The notes below the pieces were generated by a model. The model did no database searches and was not told the origin of the DNA. It was given only the letters and a program-made list of their open reading frames with translations. Source: a virus (Duplodnaviria > Heunggongvirae > Uroviricota > Caudoviricetes). Taken from it: a stretch of DNA of 64,000 nucleotides. Shown in pieces: positions 40,201 to 55,491 of the stretch (positions within the stretch are counted from its first letter, which is position 1; each line of letters starts with the position of its first letter). Both the position numbers and the translations under genes were made by a program. The stretch lies in the IMG/VR virus record IMGVR_UViG_3300045988_149282, positions 1 through 64,000 of that record, one strand, 5' to 3'.

Positions 40201-40456
40201 TCGTAACGGTTATATTGTTGAAATGACATTTAACGTTGGCGGTCAGGAGGCAACTCGCAGTTTCCCGATCAACCCGCGAATGAATATGGGCTCCTACTCG
40301 ATGGAGTTTCGTTTTGCAGCGGATATTCCAGGCAACTATGACAACGTCCCGTTCTTTGTAAGAGCACGTGGTCGGGATGCTACTTGGAACTACCAGTGTT
40401 ATGTAGAAAACATCACTGCCACTGCTTTCCGTACAAACAGCAACTCATTCAGCTAA
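28298..40456 (+). CDS. giant central tail fibre / host specificity protein (J-like, ~4052 aa) with internal coiled-coil plus CBM-like domain array
   Basis: N-terminal J-like region with an FN3-like segment; J-like C-terminal region; between them ~2400 aa of repeated coiled-coil segments each followed by a CBM4/9-like domain (start N-L-x-x-N-x-x-F-E, end Y-x-D-D-V-x-V-x-D-V-T-D). ORF track TTG 28292, first ATG 28298. Confidence 0.85.
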   Translation: MDQFKKKRLPLLIAGAGGKKSSGSSRTPVEADDTVNSRAMASILDLLGEGVVGGLINGAKSIFIDGVALENEDGSFNYSGVTWDFRDGSQDQSPMPGFDFVETPKAVNTQLKTTNAVTVAIDNDDADRVRVIMKFPSLRSIDKKTGDTNGTSVQFKFQLANGNGSFYDVIATGESSSDVKLTAKKTGVYYRSYEIQLPKPGRAYKVRVLRLSADSNDQYLFNDTWVDSIGEIVDTPMNYPNSVLVGLKVNSEQFGSSMPSRSYLIRGLKIRVPSNYDENTNTYNGVWDGTFKLLSSSNPAWILFDLLTNARYGLGKFVSESMIDLGQLYQIGRYCDEEVDDGFGGKEKRFAINTQITSRQDAYRLIQDIAGAFRGMVFWAGGMVNIMQDSPSDPVMLFTNANVKDGLFTYKGSARKDRPSVALITYNNKQDGYKQNVEYVEDQEAMARYGERKTEAVAFGCTSRGQAHRVGLWLLYTARMESDMITFTAGLDASFLMPGETVLIQNKYRAGKRNSGRIVSFTKNSITLDAPVSLKKSGSFIRIINQEGKIVERDINETGDNITKVTFKTALATAEQPVANGVWTITEPDLVPMRARVVAIAQGETPGSFDITVVQNNASKYQAIDNGAALVPENTTVLDPTYSKPSNLVISEGTYLSSPGNLSVKLMLAWEGKSPEYWVSWRRSDEGNVSNWQSARATEEQYEIVNVAENGRYDFQLYSVSFGGKKSEIITAVYQVKGTMTPPGAPTSLTAVGDYRNVVLNWVNPDSVDLAQINVYASKTNKLDTATLIAQAATTTFTHAGLGDNETWYYWIRAVNKRGMVGQPNSNLGTEATTRDVLSFLKDKITSSELGKELLDEIDSKATQEAVDNAIGEVQNSVNESIQQVENDLAQTSSEIKAQVDSVNQSLKEDIKTVNQTIVDNIDAVNQTINTNISNVNSQIEAAKQSIKDGDAALSQEIKNAQSSLTTSLSQTSKDLTAAIQKETNDRIADVNDAAKQAADQLLSAKNELKTSIDSLSEVVTSGDENLARQISQIAAGTGEQFDSLKIWYFDQDAEGWTEDDNGYTPMSVTSDGWLKANNPTSTCRSPNGLTIDAHAYRFIKMRIKKVGNPTWNAKMFWIGADETGWNAGRSVVINEPEYDDKGIAILTLHDLEWRDSTTIRRFRFDFTSGQDTDNYLLFDWIAVGRPTPGAGMAALQEEQQARANADTAEAQARSTLAAQIRGSSESGNLDDIRSGLIYQEKNARITADAAEASARESLQTEFNRNKASVAEELHTLSTEQASQASKITGLQTSLGQKADASAVQTISQKVEEQGNTLKSQGAALSTLDNRVGSVESGVSANSKAITGLQSTVTQQDKTLSSQSESITTLNNSLSDIQSDTDTAKSNPSNLLVNASFERDLAGWSAGNSVSNVIKASAPHSGSKILVCAAGTVQITQSVSVVEGRTYKLSSFVRCTTDAVISSPGNNKLRIGAATLLKEIPIRPENLPKDETWKEVSDTWKATLTGKVDVSIMSSLKTGSQYFDDVGFVDVTDALAIEANASATNALTSRVSSVEGTITSQGQQITSMQNSIKNKADASAVTNLANRVTAAENQISSQSQSITSLSNSLDNANADADASKAIIGNMLKNNSFERGFEGWEYVGWTLLEAQNPKSGKYIIQAGKLASGGDSGCNQTIELQAGKTYRIGAWVRKSADFAINNAGNNKISLRNADLTPIKDIPITGAGLSTNWALISGEYTPAKTASVVVSLRASVASGYMYLDDVFCVDVSNEKAIDATSNALSTLNSTVTQQGKDITSNSNSITSLSNQMVNGRQNMWVRSVYNVQLANNTTEPTFSDINGKAPISIDEVPDAAKLDFASAGSYVIAHYKAFVKVNADTTITMAPGSRVFDDTGAVYVNGVRVAFGNASWNTVSFDLKAGWSTVEFLVNQWTGQAYINLGFKLSEKVAQLNSALGMNALSNAISAVTSNVSTVGDRVTSTSQSVTDLRNSLEQTNANLANKADAQALSTLQNTVSKQGDTISSQGNSITNLNNTLTAARNSGDNLIPNYDFLQGATAWDIQYPAGVAFGNFGDGKAGVKLNRTTTTSPGIFSNNNKPLPLNGQRKYRVVVKAKGVSGAMNMLIRRQNKIGQTDSNYEDKNVTLTSEWQTITWETGLTASNADGQNFKLYAHPANAEIWVDTFKVFDITDEVKIKANSDALSTLSSTVTQQGDKITSQGNSITKLTNDLEAADANIAKKADQSAVTTLTGRVEKTESGLTAANSNITSLSSSLSQQSKRGANLLPDGTFESYAVGHNLSNNRVIVTTDDSHGGNKCIRVTRPNDYNANATDNSDNHIFSGFQVRDNAVFYMECWVKLDANSTAMAENTQISIGLSLQYQDNSWQWPAVTKAAKDLSTAQWTKVSGYLKSTKSGIKQAMVRISIPNVSSVKAGNSFLIDDLVITEVTDAYNAQSTADANANAISTLDSTVSQQGDQITSQGNSITKLTNDLATTNNNVSKKADQSALSVLSGRVDQTESGLSSANSSITALNSSVRAGNATSGDLISNPTFDPEFSQMGFTVVPSSSEGVPANCPYAYVARIAARDHHPNFAAIPATLGDVYEMSALVACGTGSADFNLYLGTATRPSGSVGAPLSSGGNRKASATWQRVTWRFKITQGIVDRGFFRPFLQINQSSPFGTVWYVTDWHLRNVTDSSKVQDSLDATAKAVDSLTSTVNQQGENISSIGTRTTNLENNLRTTNANVAQKADANALTALTNRVTQTEKDINSTSSSVTNLNNKVDAISVGGTNLIKNSGDMTGWSNVVSDTYRGNAVIGATVKAGSGYRDLREITLESPVDAGEYVYSFYAKGGVAGQIMTAFFYNPNTTTSIETSQGAKGNNSDGRAQFTLTTSWARYWVKWKQTPTTSTKRLILCRIESNTSKDQTVYINSPKFEVGNVVSDWNESPSDSASASAVDSLTTKVNQQGTSISSIGNRTTSLENGLSTAQNNIAKKADASALQDLRNTVTSQGDDLTAANSSITSLHASMNRRTVFTVTARGNGNSVTHGVFDESGKNLFTPGRSWALVTFAKHSDGSTVIATSKTYDVFGSANNGATMSADIEALASGTYVCVLTFDEPTGNRGKVLSALESLGGTSEVVNSLPYRGAYILLGRKGMKPGDGLELRAPTGGDGTAHISTSVEFVNGVMMGLGAAGGVMMKADANASAITTLQNTVKTQGDNIDSLSSSTTALENSLASSNASVDAASQIPGNLIVNPSFERGTEGYTGWSGIATVATLQVPHLGTKAAKLAAGGSAGVGQKISFKKDRSYKIGIWAKQDPNTTIQSTDNTKFRVADGTGLIASKVYGPFTSNWQEVSWTWKATKDVLADVQFTAFLSAGAMYFDDFYVVDVTDSVETQANSSAITKLDSRVTKTENDITSQGSQVTQLKNDLATTNTNVSKKADAAALTALTNRVTQNEKEIGTQSSQTTSLKNSLSTVQAMGSNPWFDGSLETYSENQQISGSRAVVVSSQKRSGTKSLRVSRGAGEGGNSDKTIGKWIALRENAVFRIELWAMMPADQSPSSGWSTLVGLQTQNAANNNNWPTAITINEAALGARGAWKKFTGTLRVAAGHTRGAFWVSTRGTTGTGTPGYDLYIDDVVVTDITDAKEAQDSANSNASALTSLTSRVTNVEGQVTSQASQLSSLTSQVNDASSKVDQMAQTITNNEKTQSSLNTSLQSQIDAQASANIKNQTELNNATTSMAAIKSTQQTQATTISALSQQQTNLTAQVGGQSAELQELKKTVVENGNVNSTWMVKMETNSNGKKYAAGIALGIDGKNLQSQFLVQTDRFGLINTSNGNTTTPFVIENGVAYINAAVIKDGSITNAKIGGEIRSDNFVNGSNGWRIGKDGSSQFNNAIFRGHIEARSGTFKGTLEAQNFIGDIAVARRYAGLSFRRNNTVQRDGRYQNRGYGMTIVLSCTLIYQVTGGNEDRNGYIVEMTFNVGGQEATRSFPINPRMNMGSYSMEFRFAADIPGNYDNVPFFVRARGRDATWNYQCYVENITATAFRTNSNSFS

Positions 40457-40512: not shown

Positions 40513-41952
40513 ATGGCAATGTATGAAGTTGGCACCATAACGGGTGCTGCAAACCAGGCAAAGGTTACAGGTATTTCCACTAAGTGGTCGGAGACCGCCC
40601 TGGGTATTCAAGAGGGTTCGATTCTTGTCATTTATCGCAATGGAAGTGCCGATCTGTATGCCATCAAATCCGTTAATAACGACACTCAACTGACCCTGAC
40701 GAGAAACATTACAACAGCTTTTTCTGGTGCGAAATATGGAATTATCACATCAGAAACAGCCAGCACATCGTCTTTTGCTAATCAACTCGCCAGTGCATTC
40801 ACTCTGTGGCGTAATGTTGTCCAGGGGTGGTCTACAGCACTAACAGGTAGTGGCAATATTACAATAACAGACCCTTTAACGGGTGTATCTGTGACTGTTC
40901 CAGCAATTTCAGGAATGGCGAAAGCGTCCGATCTCACAGCACTTAGCAACTCGCTGAAAGATGTAGCGAAGACTACAACGGCAAACACATGGACGCAGGC
41001 GCAGACGTGGAACGCAGCATCTACGTTTAAAAATAACCTTACGGTGAACGGCACTTTTACAGTAAATGGGAATTTCTACGGCAAGCAGCTTGCTGGAGGC
41101 CACATAGAGTTAACAGGGGCGACCCCTTATATCGACTTTCACCACGGCAACACCACAACAGACTACACACATCGAATTATTACTGAGAATGGGGCATTGG
41201 CTGTTTATCCGGGCTTACGCGTCCGTGGTGGATTGGGGATTTATGGTGTAGCTACGCAATACGGAGATCAGTACGGGCAGGGATTTATCACCCGTCTTAA
41301 CACAGATCCAGGTAACGTAGCTAACGGCACAATCATTGCCTCTCCACGCGTCACAACTAGGTTCAACACTCGCGGCAGTGACACAAATGTTGACGGCGGA
41401 CAGGGGGCCATGTGGTTTGAGGAGCAGGTGGGGACGAACCATAGGCTGGTATTCATGCTTGGTGGTTTCAGTCAGCCTGTCCAATATTGGCACCACTTGC
41501 CTGATGGGCGGATCTATAGTAGTTCTCGCGGCGATGTTGCATTTAACGGGACGTCCGACGAACGGTTGAAACATAGTATAGAACCGACTGACGGCCATTT
41601 GTCAGTCGATCGCATTCGTCAGCTTGAGCTGGTGACGTTCGTCTATAACGATGACGAGCAGGAACGAGTACGCCGCGGGATTATTGCGCAGCAGGCTCAG
41701 CTGGTCGACAAACAGTATGTTAAGCAGATTAACACATCGTATATTCTCAACGGTGAGAAAGTGGACGATGACCGTCTGCAACTCGATAATAACGTTATTC
41801 TAATGGATACATTGGCGGCGGTTAAAGTACTGATTCAGCGAGTTGAAGAACTTGAGAATAAACTTAACTCATCAGAAGGGAGCGACGCCATAAATACAAA
41901 CCAGAATACCTTCGATACAGGCGTGGCCATGAGAAGTGAGCAATCAAATTAA
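40513..41952 (+). CDS. side tail fibre protein with C-terminal intramolecular chaperone (peptidase S74-like) domain
   Basis: C-terminal motif NGTSDERLKHSIEP... matches the autoproteolytic chaperone domain of endosialidases and T5 L-shaped fibre; RBS AAGGAAGAG. Confidence 0.75.
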   Translation: MAMYEVGTITGAANQAKVTGISTKWSETALGIQEGSILVIYRNGSADLYAIKSVNNDTQLTLTRNITTAFSGAKYGIITSETASTSSFANQLASAFTLWRNVVQGWSTALTGSGNITITDPLTGVSVTVPAISGMAKASDLTALSNSLKDVAKTTTANTWTQAQTWNAASTFKNNLTVNGTFTVNGNFYGKQLAGGHIELTGATPYIDFHHGNTTTDYTHRIITENGALAVYPGLRVRGGLGIYGVATQYGDQYGQGFITRLNTDPGNVANGTIIASPRVTTRFNTRGSDTNVDGGQGAMWFEEQVGTNHRLVFMLGGFSQPVQYWHHLPDGRIYSSSRGDVAFNGTSDERLKHSIEPTDGHLSVDRIRQLELVTFVYNDDEQERVRRGIIAQQAQLVDKQYVKQINTSYILNGEKVDDDRLQLDNNVILMDTLAAVKVLIQRVEELENKLNSSEGSDAINTNQNTFDTGVAMRSEQSN

Positions 41953-42042
41953 TTCAATTCGTATGTAAGTGCTTACCTACAATTAGTTTCTAATTTATGA
42001 TATAAATCTGCCATCCGATTTGACTTATTCATGGAGGAAGAC

Positions 42043-42366
42043 ATGTCAAACGAGATGGCAGGCGTGACGCCAGAGCAGGTGGAGCGCATTGCCGCAATTG
42101 TTGCGCGAGAAGTCGTAGGAAAATTAAGTAAGGAGCTTCGCGATGATATTGGCCAGGAGGTCAACGATCAGCTGCGAACCTACTTTGGCGATATGACTCC
42201 GGCGCAACATAGCATTCAGCATTCCAACCTGGACAAACTTCTTAATCGGCTCGACACGATTTCAAGCGGGTTCTTTGGAGGCATTATTTCCAAGATTACC
42301 TCGTTCCTGATCACCGTGCTGCTTTTGGGTTTGGCCGCTTATGGCGTGAAAAATGGACTGCAATAA
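42043..42366 (+). CDS. holin-like small membrane protein (candidate)
   Basis: ~107 aa with one C-terminal TM segment (ISKITSFLITVLLLGLAAYGV); first gene of the apparent lysis cassette; ATG 42043 follows GGAGG. Confidence 0.4.
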   Translation: MSNEMAGVTPEQVERIAAIVAREVVGKLSKELRDDIGQEVNDQLRTYFGDMTPAQHSIQHSNLDKLLNRLDTISSGFFGGIISKITSFLITVLLLGLAAYGVKNGLQ

Positions 42367-42379
42367 CAGGAGAACAAGG

Positions 42380-43072
42380 ATGAGTACTCCAAGAGGCATT
42401 CGTAACAACAACCCTGGCAACCTGGATAAAGGGTCGCCGTGGCAAGGGTTAGTAAACAACCCGTCGGAACCGCGGTTCTGTACTTTTAAAGACCCCGTAT
42501 GGGGGATTCGAGCACTGACAGTAACGCTCATCACCTACCATGATAAGCGCCGTGCAAAAGATGGCTCCAGCATCGATACGATCCGCGAAGTCATCGAGCG
42601 TTGGGCGCCGCCACACGAAAACAACACCGCCGCCTATATCAATGAGGTTTCTAAAGCCGTTGGCGTGACGCCGGACATGATCATCGATCTGCATGACTAC
42701 AATACTATGCGGCCGCTGGTGGAGGCGATTATTCGTCATGAGAACGGTCGTGGCCCTTTGAAAACACTCAACAGCTGGTATTCGGCCGAAGTTATTGACG
42801 AAGGTATGCGTCGCGCCGGCGTCGTTAAACCGGTAACTGCAGTGAAAGCCGTACCTGTCACGAAAGAAACTGCAGGCGCAACGGTGACTGCAGGTATCGG
42901 TATTGCGCAGCTGGCGGACGTAATGCCGCAGATCTCCGTTGCGATGGATAAGGCCCAGGGACATATTACCAGCGGGGATACCGTTCGCATTATCTTCGGT
43001 ATTGCGACCATTGTTGTCGCCGGCTTTATTGCCTGGTCGCAAGTTCGTAAGCATCAGGCAGGAGTGGTGTAA
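42380..43072 (+). CDS. endolysin-like protein (candidate cell-wall hydrolase) with C-terminal transmembrane segment
   Basis: Position between holin-like gene and spanins; soluble N-terminal domain (IRNNNPGNL...HENGRG) plus C-terminal TM helix (IIFGIATIVVAGFIAWSQV). Catalytic family not identifiable by eye. Confidence 0.4.
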   Translation: MSTPRGIRNNNPGNLDKGSPWQGLVNNPSEPRFCTFKDPVWGIRALTVTLITYHDKRRAKDGSSIDTIREVIERWAPPHENNTAAYINEVSKAVGVTPDMIIDLHDYNTMRPLVEAIIRHENGRGPLKTLNSWYSAEVIDEGMRRAGVVKPVTAVKAVPVTKETAGATVTAGIGIAQLADVMPQISVAMDKAQGHITSGDTVRIIFGIATIVVAGFIAWSQVRKHQAGVV

Positions 43073-43074
43073 CC

Positions 43075-43326
43075 ATGAACGGCAGCCTGCTTTCAAAGGT
43101 CAAATCGACCATCATGACTTTGGCTGCCGTCTTCTCTGTGCTCGTTGGGGCGTACACCTGGGGTGGACGTGCTGCCCGGCGGGCCATGGAAGAAAAGGCG
43201 CAGAGAGAAACCAACAAACGGCTTCAAGGCACAGTGGATGTGAAAAATGAGACGATTAATGAAGTCAGGACTAAGGATGCTTCTGCCGTTCATCGCGAGC
43301 TTCGCGATAAGTGGATGCGTGATTAA
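43075..43326 (+). CDS. i-spanin (Rz-like)
   Basis: N-terminal TM helix followed by a charged coiled-coil periplasmic domain; contains the embedded o-spanin start. Confidence 0.6.
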   Translation: MNGSLLSKVKSTIMTLAAVFSVLVGAYTWGGRAARRAMEEKAQRETNKRLQGTVDVKNETINEVRTKDASAVHRELRDKWMRD

Positions 43327-43474
43327 ACCCCAGACCGTGGGCGTACAATTCTGCGATGGGGCTAACCCTATCTACATCAGCAAGGACGACGCCCTGACAG
43401 AAGAAACTGAGAGGGAAATCCTGATCCACAACACGCTGGGTGAGCGAATCTGTGATTGGGGGAAAGGTACATAA
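43247..43474 (+). CDS. o-spanin (Rz1-like outer-membrane lipoprotein), overlapped with i-spanin
   Basis: Signal peptide with lipobox (FAISGC), short mature protein; starts within the 3' end of the i-spanin gene in another frame. Confidence 0.6.
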   Translation: MRRLMKSGLRMLLPFIASFAISGCVIKPQTVGVQFCDGANPIYISKDDALTEETEREILIHNTLGERICDWGKGT

Positions 43475-43715
43475 GGAACTGACGTAAGATGCGCTTGCGT
43501 TGATGTGAGGCGCATCTGTTTCTTCTATCTGTAATCGAGTAAATGCCGTCATCCAAGTTCACCGAACTTGATTATTCTTCACCGAACTTCACTCAAGGTA
43601 ATCTTGAATCATCCTGCTTAATGATGTAGATTTAACCAACAGCTGACGATGTCGTCAGCCGTTAGACCTGAAAAGGTGCCGCAATGACACTTGTGTTAAC
43701 GGCTAAGGTGGATAT

Positions 43716-45041: not shown

Positions 45042-45710
45042 ATGACCAAGATCTTTGTGGTTGGCGGCACAAAGGGCGGGCCTGGCAAATCCACCGTTGC
45101 CCAGCAAATTGCCGTTTGCCTGAAAGTCAAAAAGAAGAAGAAGGTTTATATTACCGATATAGATATTCAGCGCACGACAACGAGCTGGTGTGAAGACCGT
45201 CGACAGAACGAAGACCTTGAGCTGATTCCTTTTGCATACGTTCAGGATGACATCATTAAGCACCTAAAATCGCTTCAGGGTAGAGCTGAGTTTGTAGTGG
45301 TAGATGCTGGTGGCTTCGACTCCGAAATTCAGCGACAAGCGATGCTGATGGCTGACGTTATCATTATCCCGCTGCGTCCTAAGCGTCGTGATTTGAAATC
45401 TTTACGTGACATCGATCCTATTATCGACAATGTTCGCAATGTAAACGATAAAGTGAAGGTCCGCGCGGTCATGAACCAGTGCCCGGCTTTGCCATCACAA
45501 GTGTCTCGCATTCTGGCGGCTAAAGAGATTGTTGAGACGTTTGGCATCGAGTCTGCGCCAGTCAATCTATATAACCGCAACGTCTATGATGATGCGGAAG
45601 AGTCTGGTCGCTCTATCTTTGAAATGACCGGTAGCGAGCGCGACAAAAAGGCGGAAGCCGAGTTTGAAGAATTTGTAGATTATCTGTTGAGTCTGGAGGA
45701 AGAAGAATAA
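45042..45710 (+). CDS. parA: ParA/Soj-family partition ATPase
   Basis: Deviant Walker A (GGTKGGPGKST) typical of ParA/MinD; size ~222 aa suggests a type Ib ParA; conserved upstream motif AGAAAACAAGTTGTTT at 44991-45006. Confidence 0.85.
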   Translation: MTKIFVVGGTKGGPGKSTVAQQIAVCLKVKKKKKVYITDIDIQRTTTSWCEDRRQNEDLELIPFAYVQDDIIKHLKSLQGRAEFVVVDAGGFDSEIQRQAMLMADVIIIPLRPKRRDLKSLRDIDPIIDNVRNVNDKVKVRAVMNQCPALPSQVSRILAAKEIVETFGIESAPVNLYNRNVYDDAEESGRSIFEMTGSERDKKAEAEFEEFVDYLLSLEEEE

Positions 45711-54863: not shown

Positions 54864-54938
54864 GATGGTGTAGCTCAGCGGTAGAGCAGTTGGCTGTTAA
54901 CCAACTGGTCGGTGGTTCGAATCCACCCACCATCGCCA
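54864..54938 (+). tRNA. tRNA-Asn (anticodon GTT)
   Basis: Hand-folded cloverleaf: 7-bp acceptor GATGGTG/CACCATC, D-arm GCTC/GAGC, anticodon loop CTGTTAA, T-loop TTCGAAT, encoded CCA. Confidence 0.8.
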
Positions 54939-54943
54939 ATTTA

Positions 54944-55030
54944 GGGGAGTTAGTCCGTAGAGGTAGCGGTGTAGACTGTAAATCTACTGTCATGGCGACT
55001 CGGGTGGTTCGACTCCATCACTCCCCACCA
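54944..55030 (+). tRNA. tRNA-Tyr (anticodon GTA), class II with long variable arm
   Basis: Acceptor GGGGAGT/ACTCCCC, anticodon stem GTAGA/TCTAC with loop CTGTAAA, long variable arm, T-loop TTCGACT, encoded CCA. Confidence 0.75.
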
Positions 55031-55034
55031 AATT

Positions 55035-55110
55035 GCCGGTTTAGCTCAGTTGGTAGAGCGCCTGCCTTGTAAGCAGGATGTCAGCGGTTCGAGTCCGTTA
55101 ACCGGCACCA
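55035..55110 (+). tRNA. tRNA-Thr (anticodon TGT)
   Basis: Acceptor GCCGGTT/AACCGGC, D-arm TAGCTCAGTTGGTAGAGC, anticodon loop CTTGTAA, T-loop TTCGAGT, encoded CCA. Confidence 0.8.
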
Positions 55111-55404
55111 ACATAATATTGAGAACATTGGCGTAACGGGTTCATATCCCAATTTATGAATATAATGTTGCGTTGCAGCGTGACAACCAGTGTTCTCAAC
55201 ATTGTGGTGAATGCACAGGCTGATGTGCGACGTAGAAGCAAGCGGATGAACTGCCTGAAGGCCGCTAACGTAGGCAATGCCGGAGATCAGCACCGGCCAT
55301 CACAATTTGGCTCTCTTGCAACAGCATAACGCTGAAATACGTCCAACCTGGTGCGGTCTGATCACCCGCCGTTAGCTCCACGAAACGGAGCACACAACAC
55401 AATT

Positions 55405-55491
55405 GGAGAGTAGGGAGCATGGTGCTCAAGCGGTCTTGAAAACCGTCCCATTGTGCAAACGATGATGGTTCGATTCCATTACTCTCCGCCA
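55405..55491 (+). tRNA. tRNA-Ser (anticodon TGA), class II (candidate)
   Basis: Acceptor GGAGAGT/ACTCTCC, anticodon stem GCGGT/ACCGT with loop CTTGAAA, long variable region, T-loop TTCGATT, CCA. D-arm atypical, hence lower confidence. Confidence 0.6.

Follow-up and report, generated by a model that had tools for sequence, protein, structure and literature searches.

Positions 42043–43474 of a 64,000-nucleotide (nt) stretch of a tailed-virus genome (IMG/VR record IMGVR_UViG_3300045988_149282, positions 1 to 64,000; hereafter the window), which its sequence identifies as an SSU5-type phage-plasmid, form a lysis module. Its only endolysin is a 230-aa protein that carries a membrane module at its C terminus, and both of these assignments are firmly supported. 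Four closely packed genes on the + strand make up the cassette: a small membrane protein in the position of a holin, here called X, the endolysin, a spanin of the inner membrane (i-spanin) and one of the outer membrane (o-spanin) (Table 1). By analogy with published systems, we favour with moderate confidence a mechanism in which the C-terminal module keeps the endolysin at the inner membrane, and the enzyme would become effective once X permeabilises or depolarises that membrane. The original prediction, made from the DNA letters, had read the same four open reading frames (ORFs) as a lysis cassette. All four are present where it had placed them, PHROG matches and gene order bear out the reading, and the E-values of those matches (Table 1) put the ORFs well beyond chance. 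The extent that it had assigned to the endolysin gene was also right, although the product is 230 aa plus a stop codon and not the 231 aa it had given.

For the 230-aa protein, nothing above threshold was found in Pfam or NCBIfam. Its N-terminal domain aligned by phmmer, over residues 2–153, to the Enc34 endolysin's catalytic domain (PDB 7Q47; E = 3.6e-56). A Foldseek search with its AlphaFold2 (AF2) model, in which the predicted local distance difference test (pLDDT) score was 86–96 across residues 40–150, returned 7q47_B as the sole significant match (E = 1.5e-15, TMt 0.83, 60% identity). The IRNNNPGNL motif occupies residues 7–15. Three residues, W75 (in ERWAPP), Y86 and E121 (in RHENG), were invariant in an alignment of 44 endolysin homologues and are the equivalents of Enc34 Trp79, Tyr95 and Glu131 according to the phmmer alignment and the published work on that enzyme (PMC8943055). 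The Enc34 domain is muralytic, has an all-helical fold like the alpha-lobe of lysozyme and uses Glu131 with Tyr95 and Trp79 nearby (Cernooka et al. 2022, PMC8943055). Similarity extends beyond the catalytic domain, with about 54% identity to Chi gp38, iEPS5 'lysis protein A' and Serratia phage JS26 gp47 over 98–100% of the length, membrane module included.

To cover the whole element, we used the annotation of a complete twin, the 112,917-bp E. coli plasmid pECAZ155_2 (NZ_CP019002.1). No other gene in it is annotated as a peptidoglycan hydrolase, as judged by PGAP product names and not by a profile scan of every ORF, and a second endolysin elsewhere in the element was rejected as none is among those names. 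The only annotated peptidase belongs to the C40 family and lies among the tail genes, beside minor tail protein L and tail assembly genes. Because the predicted fold is 7Q47-like, the catalytic residues are conserved and no other hydrolase is annotated, sequence and structure model together firmly support the 230-aa protein as the muralytic enzyme of the cassette. The original prediction had hedged on this point, allowing that the protein might not be the muralytic enzyme, and had counted the lack of a peptidoglycan-hydrolase fold in the N-terminal domain, or a canonical endolysin elsewhere, against its reading. Neither objection holds, as the fold and all three catalytic residues are in place and no such endolysin is annotated in the twin element, and the reservation can be dropped.

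The same catalytic domain also occurs in other settings. Searches with residues 1–146 give several such matches. Mu-like Pseudomonas phages (DMS3, JBD) and some E. coli siphophages encode it as a short, stand-alone 'endolysin' that has no membrane module. It also lies inside internal virion proteins of Kayfunavirus-type podophages (gp16-like) and in Gp29 of PDB 9vvp, where it forms the N terminus, as well as in an epsilon15 gene annotated 'head protein', and PHROG families with the labels tape measure protein or 'injection transglycosylase' contain it too.

These occurrences in virion, tape-measure, head and injection proteins (from PHROG, tblastn and 9vvp Gp29), along with the label 'virion protein' that NCBI CDD gives to the domain, would be compatible with a different role for the 230-aa protein, namely that of a virion-associated or injection-stage murein hydrolase, or of some other membrane protein, with host lysis brought about by something else. 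We consider this extremely improbable. The protein has a small gene of its own, flanked by the holin-position gene on one side and the spanin genes on the other, its full-length homologues cause lysis from within (PMC7143992), the element has no other annotated muralytic enzyme apart from the C40 peptidase among the tail genes, and a C-terminal membrane anchor is unsuited to a virion component.

Sec, signal-anchor-release (SAR) and Tat signals were each considered at the N terminus of the enzyme and rejected, as a hydrophobic segment is absent: no 19-aa window before residue 170 had a Kyte–Doolittle value above 1.2. An alternative start at 42353, which has no ribosome-binding site, would add only MDCNNRRTR, in which the RR pair is not followed by a hydrophobic region. 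The endolysin therefore does not have the weakly hydrophobic, Gly/Ala-rich N-terminal transmembrane domain (TMD) that serves SAR endolysins as a Sec signal-anchor. It does have the features of Enc34-type endolysins with a C-terminal TMD, that is, domain homology, the catalytic residues and a two-helix membrane domain preceded by a linker. Hydropathy agrees here with the original prediction, which had described an endolysin with no N-terminal signal or SAR sequence and a hydrophobic C-terminal helix, and had called the topologies of both the endolysin and X, each with a C-terminal transmembrane (TM) segment, non-canonical.

The C-terminal module opens with an almost invariant PVTKET motif (P159, T161). 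Hydropathy places a strong TM segment, IIFGIATIVVAGFIAWSQV, at residues 204–222 and a weaker hydrophobic or amphipathic helix ahead of it, at about residues 170–192. The AF2 model has helices at residues 176–192 (hydrophobic moment, muH, 0.38) and 199–226, the second being 28 residues long and holding the strong TM, with a loop at residues 193–198; the basic tail reads RKHQAGVV. Residues invariant among the homologues are P159, T161, A167, G174, A188, S198, G207 and Q221. Across 42 homologues, the mean net charge is +2.3 after the TM and −0.9 in the 15 residues before it, and this basic tail fits a cytoplasmic C terminus under the positive-inside rule. Judged by the sequence, the enzyme may then lie wholly outside the inner membrane (one span) or on the inside, with the module forming a hairpin (two spans). 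Conservation of the module roughly equals that of the enzyme domain, which argues for a specific function beyond that of an anchor.

A second line of evidence on the module comes from an unrelated enzyme. A hidden Markov model (HMM) of the module built from the Enc34-type family matches the C terminus of LysAP of Acidovorax phage AP1 with 22.2 bits (residues 156–225, 70 residues from LysAP's own PVT motif), and the GH24 catalytic domain of LysAP has no similarity to the Enc34-type domain. In a control of 2000 shuffles that kept composition separately for the soluble, TM and tail segments, scores averaged 1.2 bits with a maximum of 12.2, and none of the 2000 reached 22.2. This similarity suggests that the module is transferable and sits on at least two unrelated catalytic domains. 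Among the GenBank phage records listed, no third catalytic partner was seen: tblastn with the module returned 167 records, those listed being Chi-like or SSU5-like, and tblastn with the AP1 C-terminal module found AP1 alone. We also considered whether the module is a fused copy of a small two-TM (2-TM) protein encoded by distant relatives of the cassette (described below), and rejected this on an hhalign probability of 0.14%.

X, the product of the first gene, has a charged helical N-terminal part (residues 1–75), a single C-terminal TM at about residues 77–102, which is its sole hydrophobic stretch, and a five-residue tail. Its AF2 model, of low confidence (pLDDT 60), consists of two long helices joined at a motif containing the invariant residues G49, H56 and H60 (FGDMTPAQHSIQH; family form FGDMxPxQHxxQH). 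The motif precedes the TM by about 20 residues, and the HxxxH spacing, which would put both His residues on the same face of a helix, could serve to bind a metal or a partner. X has no Pfam or NCBIfam match, and its PHROG family is labelled 'unknown function'. In GenBank phage records, tblastn with X found 12 SSU5-like records only, and tblastn with its distant members likewise found SSU5-like phages only. A profile search of 1.84 billion representatives gave 56 clusters, and a metagenome scan gave one locus. The full-length members of this family are mostly about 100–140 aa and share the charged helical N-terminal part, the invariant G49/H56/H60 and the C-terminal TM.

We found no link between X and described partners of C-terminally anchored endolysins. 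Homology to Chi gp37, JS26 gp48 or AP1 HolAP was rejected (blastp E about 1 against Chi gp37 and JS26 gp48); the Chi and JS26 proteins are weakly related to each other (E = 3e-5) and not to X. A dual-start motif of the holin/antiholin type was also rejected, as Met5 is unconserved in the family and the ATG at 42031, upstream of the X start, has no Shine–Dalgarno sequence. Still, X is a small membrane protein with at least one TMD whose gene adjoins that of the endolysin, as is typical of a holin. It is this gene position that suggests a holin role for X, and by analogy it is probably a holin-like timer or trigger.

To place X in a wider setting, we used the genomic context recovered for 11 of its distant members (L007–L018), those of L008–L018 being on metagenomic contigs of about 110 kb. 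In 10 of the 11 loci, the X homologue is immediately 5′ of a gene for a soluble endolysin that has no hydrophobic segment at all. These endolysins are of the Peptidase_M15_3 or an M15-like type (L008, L011/L012, L013 (weak), L014, L015, L016, L017 and L018) or of the Amidase_2 type (L009/L010). The two ORFs abut or overlap by 1–4 nt in the six loci with called genes, and the pairs are located just 3′ of tail-fibre genes. X is thus a gene of lysis cassettes, and across loci it accompanies endolysins of three unrelated families (Enc34-type, M15_3 and Amidase_2). In the eleventh locus, L007, no endolysin is adjacent; next to X come two small proteins that contain hydrophobic stretches, and one of them has a weak, sub-threshold match to Holin_LLH (E = 0.025).

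These linkages bear on the idea that X acts outside lysis, as a tail-fibre accessory factor or as a superinfection-exclusion or moron-type membrane protein lodged between the tail-fibre and lysis genes. X always comes after tail-fibre or tail-fibre-assembly genes, it matches no holin family and it has no adjoining endolysin in L007, all of which would suit such a role. Yet it has stayed with an endolysin gene over three unrelated families, with ORFs that abut or overlap, it has no defence-system match in PADLOC, and even in L007 it precedes small proteins with hydrophobic stretches, one of them with the weak Holin_LLH similarity. On balance, we judge a role outside lysis very unlikely. A part for either X or the endolysin as a component of a defence system was rejected, there being zero PADLOC matches for both.

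In the seven distant loci in which the contig continues, the endolysin gene is followed by one for a small protein with hydrophobic segments and then by one for a long i-spanin-like protein. Seven of these small proteins could be aligned, and six of them are members of a single conserved 2-TM family, which makes a candidate holin or pinholin (Table 1). The family has the signature RPYLT...AW.V...KDYI.A..P.NA.I..WF.E, no Pfam match and a weak match to phrog_6637 only. Among relatives of X, it is always positioned between the soluble endolysin and the i-spanin-like gene.

The distant loci resemble the SSU5-type cassette in their first gene, in their place after the tail fibres and in the order X–endolysin–...–spanin. 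They differ in combining a soluble endolysin with a small membrane protein and a long i-spanin, whereas the SSU5 type has a TMD-endolysin and short Chi-type spanins, and the small membrane protein is absent. It appears that the SSU5 lineage of enterobacteria retained X and exchanged a set of soluble endolysin, small membrane protein and long spanin for a Chi-type set of TMD-endolysin and short i- and o-spanins. This scenario fits a survey of spanins that grouped the SSU5 o-spanin in the Chi family (PMC6139136).

The last two genes of the cassette are firmly supported as spanins by their sequences, which have the hallmarks of a two-component pair of the overlapped Chi type: an i-spanin with an N-terminal TMD, an o-spanin with a lipobox and overlapping frames. 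The o-spanin is 49% identical to Chi gp40 (blastp E = 9e-18), and the i-spanin has weak similarity to JS26 gp46 (1.7e-9) and Chi gp39 (2.6e-6). In the published survey, the SSU5 o-spanin is listed in the Chi o-spanin family and the SSU5 i-spanin is a singleton (PMC6139136). The original prediction had described the o-spanin gene as embedded in the 3′ end of the i-spanin gene. This needs correction, as the o-spanin frame shares only 80 nt with the 3′ end of the i-spanin gene and extends 148 nt past it, an overlapped architecture.

Taken together, the cassette could work as follows. The endolysin would build up harmlessly, with its C-terminal module as a tether in the inner membrane, until X permeabilised or depolarised the membrane at a programmed time. 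The tethered enzyme, freed or re-oriented, would then attack the murein, and the i- and o-spanins would fuse the inner and outer membranes, disrupting the outer membrane last. We infer the tether-and-release step, triggering by X and the way in which each of the two proteins sits in the membrane, the first two by analogy with SAR-endolysin/pinholin systems and with the model proposed for AP1.

Experiments on homologues are informative in this respect. Muralytic activity and TMD-dependent lysis have been demonstrated for Enc34 ORF39deltaC and for M4Lys of Salmonella phage BSPM4, and by analogy are predicted for the protein described here. Full-length M4Lys lyses E. coli alone, and azide merely delays this lysis (Bai et al. 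2020, PMC7143992). Lysis is lost on removal of the TMD or of no more than the 13 C-terminal residues, expression of the TMD by itself is bacteriostatic, and the truncated enzyme degrades peptidoglycan to N-acetylglucosaminidase-type products (PMC7143992). In AP1, LysAP was described as a 'C-terminal SAR endolysin' paired with the pinholin HolAP; its C-terminal module is required for membrane localisation and lysis, and HolAP, with one TMD, binds LysAP in a two-hybrid assay and speeds lysis (Zhang et al. 2022, PMC8879335). The suggestion in the original prediction that the unusual topologies point to a different mechanism of release or activation is consistent with the published work on M4Lys and Enc34 ORF39.

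Several points weigh against the tether-and-release mechanism with X as its trigger. X has no charged C-terminal domain such as holins typically carry and belongs to no described holin family, and the 2-TM protein of its distant relatives is at least as holin-like as X itself. The charges flanking the X TM are nearly balanced, with +0.9 on the short C-terminal tail and an acidic N-terminal part of about 85 aa (mean −3.4), and its orientation by charge bias is ambiguous. The holin-position protein of BSPM4, which has one TMD, is non-toxic, is not needed for lysis, delays it slightly and does not release M4Lys lacking its TMD (PMC7143992), from which, by analogy, the partner in such cassettes may be a regulator instead of a hole-former. 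The azide results for M4Lys and AP1 conflict. Export of an N-terminal domain of 195 residues by means of an anchor at the C terminus does not correspond to any known pathway (discussed in PMC8943055), so a picture in which the enzyme is tethered outside and then released has a missing step. Finally, no paper on the function of any SSU5-type lysis gene was found in the literature.

Some of these observations would be accommodated if the endolysin were self-sufficient, its module being a built-in holin-like or self-export device and X an antiholin-type brake or timer that, in cassettes with soluble endolysins, regulates the 2-TM protein. In support of this view, M4Lys alone lyses E. coli, its TMD alone is bacteriostatic and its one-TMD neighbour is harmless, slightly delaying and unable to release the TMD-less enzyme (PMC7143992), and full-length Enc34 ORF39 is toxic (PMC8943055). 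X is without the usual hallmarks of a holin, which favours a brake or timer, and in X relatives with soluble endolysins the endolysin is followed, wherever the contig reaches far enough, by a small protein with hydrophobic segments that is missing from SSU5-type cassettes with a TMD-endolysin. However, lysis by M4Lys on its own may be an artefact of over-expression, as SAR endolysins also lyse holin-free when over-expressed (argued in PMC8943055), and the one-TMD partner in AP1 speeds lysis and does not delay it (PMC8879335). The comparison of module and 2-TM protein gave no sign of homology. In holin–endolysin pairs, moreover, the holin is usually encoded first, for example in P2 (Y-K-lysA-lysB-lysC). 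We consider a self-sufficient endolysin possible but rather doubtful, and retain release of a tethered enzyme by X as the preferred reading.

A more far-reaching proposal has two parts. The module would be a portable device that takes a folded muralytic domain across the inner membrane, or through a lesion in it, without a signal peptide or a holin, and X would be the founder of a new class of holins or lysis timers (C-terminal TM, G..H...H) that serves both soluble (M15, amidase) and tethered endolysins. The presence of the module on two unrelated catalytic domains, Enc34-type here and GH24 in AP1, fits a portable device; as a whole, we regard the proposal as speculative and unlikely.

To assess how widespread the cassette is, we compared it with plasmid and protein collections. 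The 1.7 kb around it is 99.9% identical to the E. coli plasmids pECAZ155_2 and NZ_CP019283.1 and shares about 97% identity with hundreds of plasmids from Klebsiella and with Klebsiella SSU5-like phages, for example pJN2-26. At least 80% of the cassette DNA is present in 436 plasmid records, at least 748 plasmid records (PLSDB) encode a full-length endolysin homologue, and relatives of the endolysin fall into 1475 protein clusters at E ≤ 1e-10.

The cassette lies directly 3′ of tail-fibre genes, a 4054-aa tail-tip fibre ORF followed by a 479-aa tail fibre. The former is an unusually large tail protein, named 'phage tail tip fiber protein' in the RefSeq twin plasmid. The latter ends in a Peptidase_S74 intramolecular chaperone domain (E = 2e-11, SDERLKHSIEP motif), which likewise terminates the tail fibres 5′ of X in the distant loci L008 and L018. 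On the other side, a terminator-like hairpin with a T-run begins 22 nt past the o-spanin stop and is the probable end of the late or lysis transcription unit. A gap of 240 nt separates the cassette from the next gene and holds two exact copies of TTCACCGAACTT, 20 nt apart, and near them a hairpin with 12-nt arms (AACAGCTGACGA / TCGTCAGCCGTT). These repeats and the hairpin could be a regulatory or partition-related site; downstream of the gap are two genes of unknown function and a gene for a ParA-like ATPase. Further along the window is a cluster of four tRNA genes, of which the RefSeq annotation of the twin plasmid gives only three, tRNA-Tyr being missing.

Annotation of the cassette varies between records. 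The record of SSU5 itself already names these genes 'putative holin/endolysin/Rz1'. In the RefSeq plasmid records listed, the endolysin is a 'hypothetical protein' or 'membrane protein', and the o-spanin is not called by PGAP in NZ_CP019002.1. The 'Rz1' coding sequence (CDS) of pJN2-26 begins at a GTG right after the lipobox Cys, so that the signal peptide is missing.

Table 1 Features of the lysis cassette, its surroundings in the window and related loci
Feature	Position (nt)	Strand	Description
X	42043-42366	+	107 aa; GGAGG Shine-Dalgarno; phrog_5093, 6e-68
X, C-terminal TM	42271-42348	+	
Endolysin	42380-43072	+	230 aa + stop; phrog_873 'endolysin', 5.6e-87
Endolysin, catalytic domain	42380-42838	+	Residues 1-153; predicted Enc34-type (PHA02564) all-helical lysozyme-like fold; W75, Y86 and catalytic E121
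Endolysin, membrane module	42854-43072	+	Residues 159-230 + stop; PVTKET, Ala/Gly/Thr-rich segment, amphipathic helix, loop, TM helix, basic tail
Endolysin, 28-residue AF2 helix	42974-43057	+	
i-spanin	43075-43326	+	83 aa; N-terminal TM, short charged periplasmic helix ending KWMRD; phrog_1026 'Rz-like spanin', 1.7e-24
o-spanin	43247-43474	+	75-aa lipoprotein precursor; lipobox ISGC (Cys24); phrog_1275 'Rz-like spanin', 5.2e-24
Terminator-like hairpin + T-run	43496-43524	+	Consensus scan only
4054-aa tail-tip fibre ORF	28292-40456	+	Just 5′ of the 479-aa tail fibre
479-aa tail fibre	40513-41952	+	C-terminal Peptidase_S74 domain
TTCACCGAACTT repeats	43558-43569; 43578-43589		
12-nt-arm hairpin	43638-43663		
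ParA-like ATPase gene	45042-45710		
tRNA cluster	54864-55491	+	Asn-GTT, Tyr-GTA, Thr-TGT, Ser-TGA
2-TM family (72-90 aa)	L008 4255-4473; L009 4300-4557; L011 4303-4545; L013 4246-4518; L016 1661-1912; L017 3023-3268		Candidate holin or pinholin of distant X loci
AP1 LysAP	L019 1129-1812		GH24 catalytic domain; module-HMM match at C terminus
o-spanin and endolysin annotation gaps	43247-43474; L001 5420-5563; L004		

Endolysins with a C-terminal anchor have been published before, in Siskin (2019), for M4Lys (2020) and for Enc34 (2022), with an analogous case in AP1 (2022). In the literature searched, we did not find this architecture described as the standard endolysin of SSU5-type phage-plasmids, beyond Chivirus and its relatives, nor X as a separate family of wider distribution that is linked with more than one type of endolysin. 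The same holds for the small membrane protein that follows the soluble endolysins of X relatives and is absent from the SSU5-type cassette with its own membrane module, and for a C-terminal module probably common to two unrelated catalytic domains. C-terminally anchored endolysins are a recognised exception to the holin–endolysin and SAR–pinholin schemes, and clinical Klebsiella, E. coli, Enterobacter and Salmonella commonly harbour SSU5-type phage-plasmids, often with resistance genes. That one lineage pairs X with a tethered endolysin, and another pairs it with soluble endolysins and an extra small membrane protein, offers a natural comparison set that could separate the roles of trigger, hole-former and anchor. 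There is also an annotation gap, with the endolysin unnamed as an enzyme in the RefSeq plasmid records listed and the o-spanin uncalled in the twin plasmid.

Among known systems, the working analogy is with SAR endolysins and pinholins. In the classical cases (phage 21 R21/S21 and P1 Lyz), a tethered, inactive endolysin is freed on depolarisation of the membrane by a small membrane protein, and the endolysin has an N-terminal anchor and is exported by Sec. The likeness would lie in a membrane-tethered endolysin and in lysis without a holin on over-expression; the difference is that the anchor here is C-terminal and the N terminus has no hydrophobic segment.

The closest relatives are the endolysins of Chi-like phages. 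The C-terminal membrane domain was first flagged in Siskin (2019, PMC6498227), and the paper on Enc34 stated that the architecture 'appears to be limited' to Chivirus and its relatives (PMC8943055). Enc34 ORF39 has the same catalytic family, a C-terminal two-helix membrane domain and the same place between a holin-position gene and overlapped spanins. It comes, however, from a Chi-related siphovirus of about 60 kb and not from a phage-plasmid of about 110 kb, and its upstream partner is of a different family from X, with its TM at the opposite end. M4Lys and the Chi-like 'lysis protein A' are full-length homologues of the endolysin described here, with linker, amphipathic helix, TM and basic tail all kept. 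Their partner (BSPM4 ORF_37, Chi gp37 and the Siskin 'class IV' protein) has, like JS26 gp48, an N-terminal TM and a charged C-terminal part of about 70 aa, whereas X is non-homologous and its mirror image. AP1 also has a C-terminal membrane module on its endolysin and a partner with one TMD, but its catalytic domain is of the GH24 family and HolAP, with an N-terminal TM and a charged part of about 70 aa, is unrelated to X. The SSU5-type cassette shares its type of endolysin with Chi-like phages, and a module on that endolysin probably with AP1, and has a partner protein distinct from those of both.

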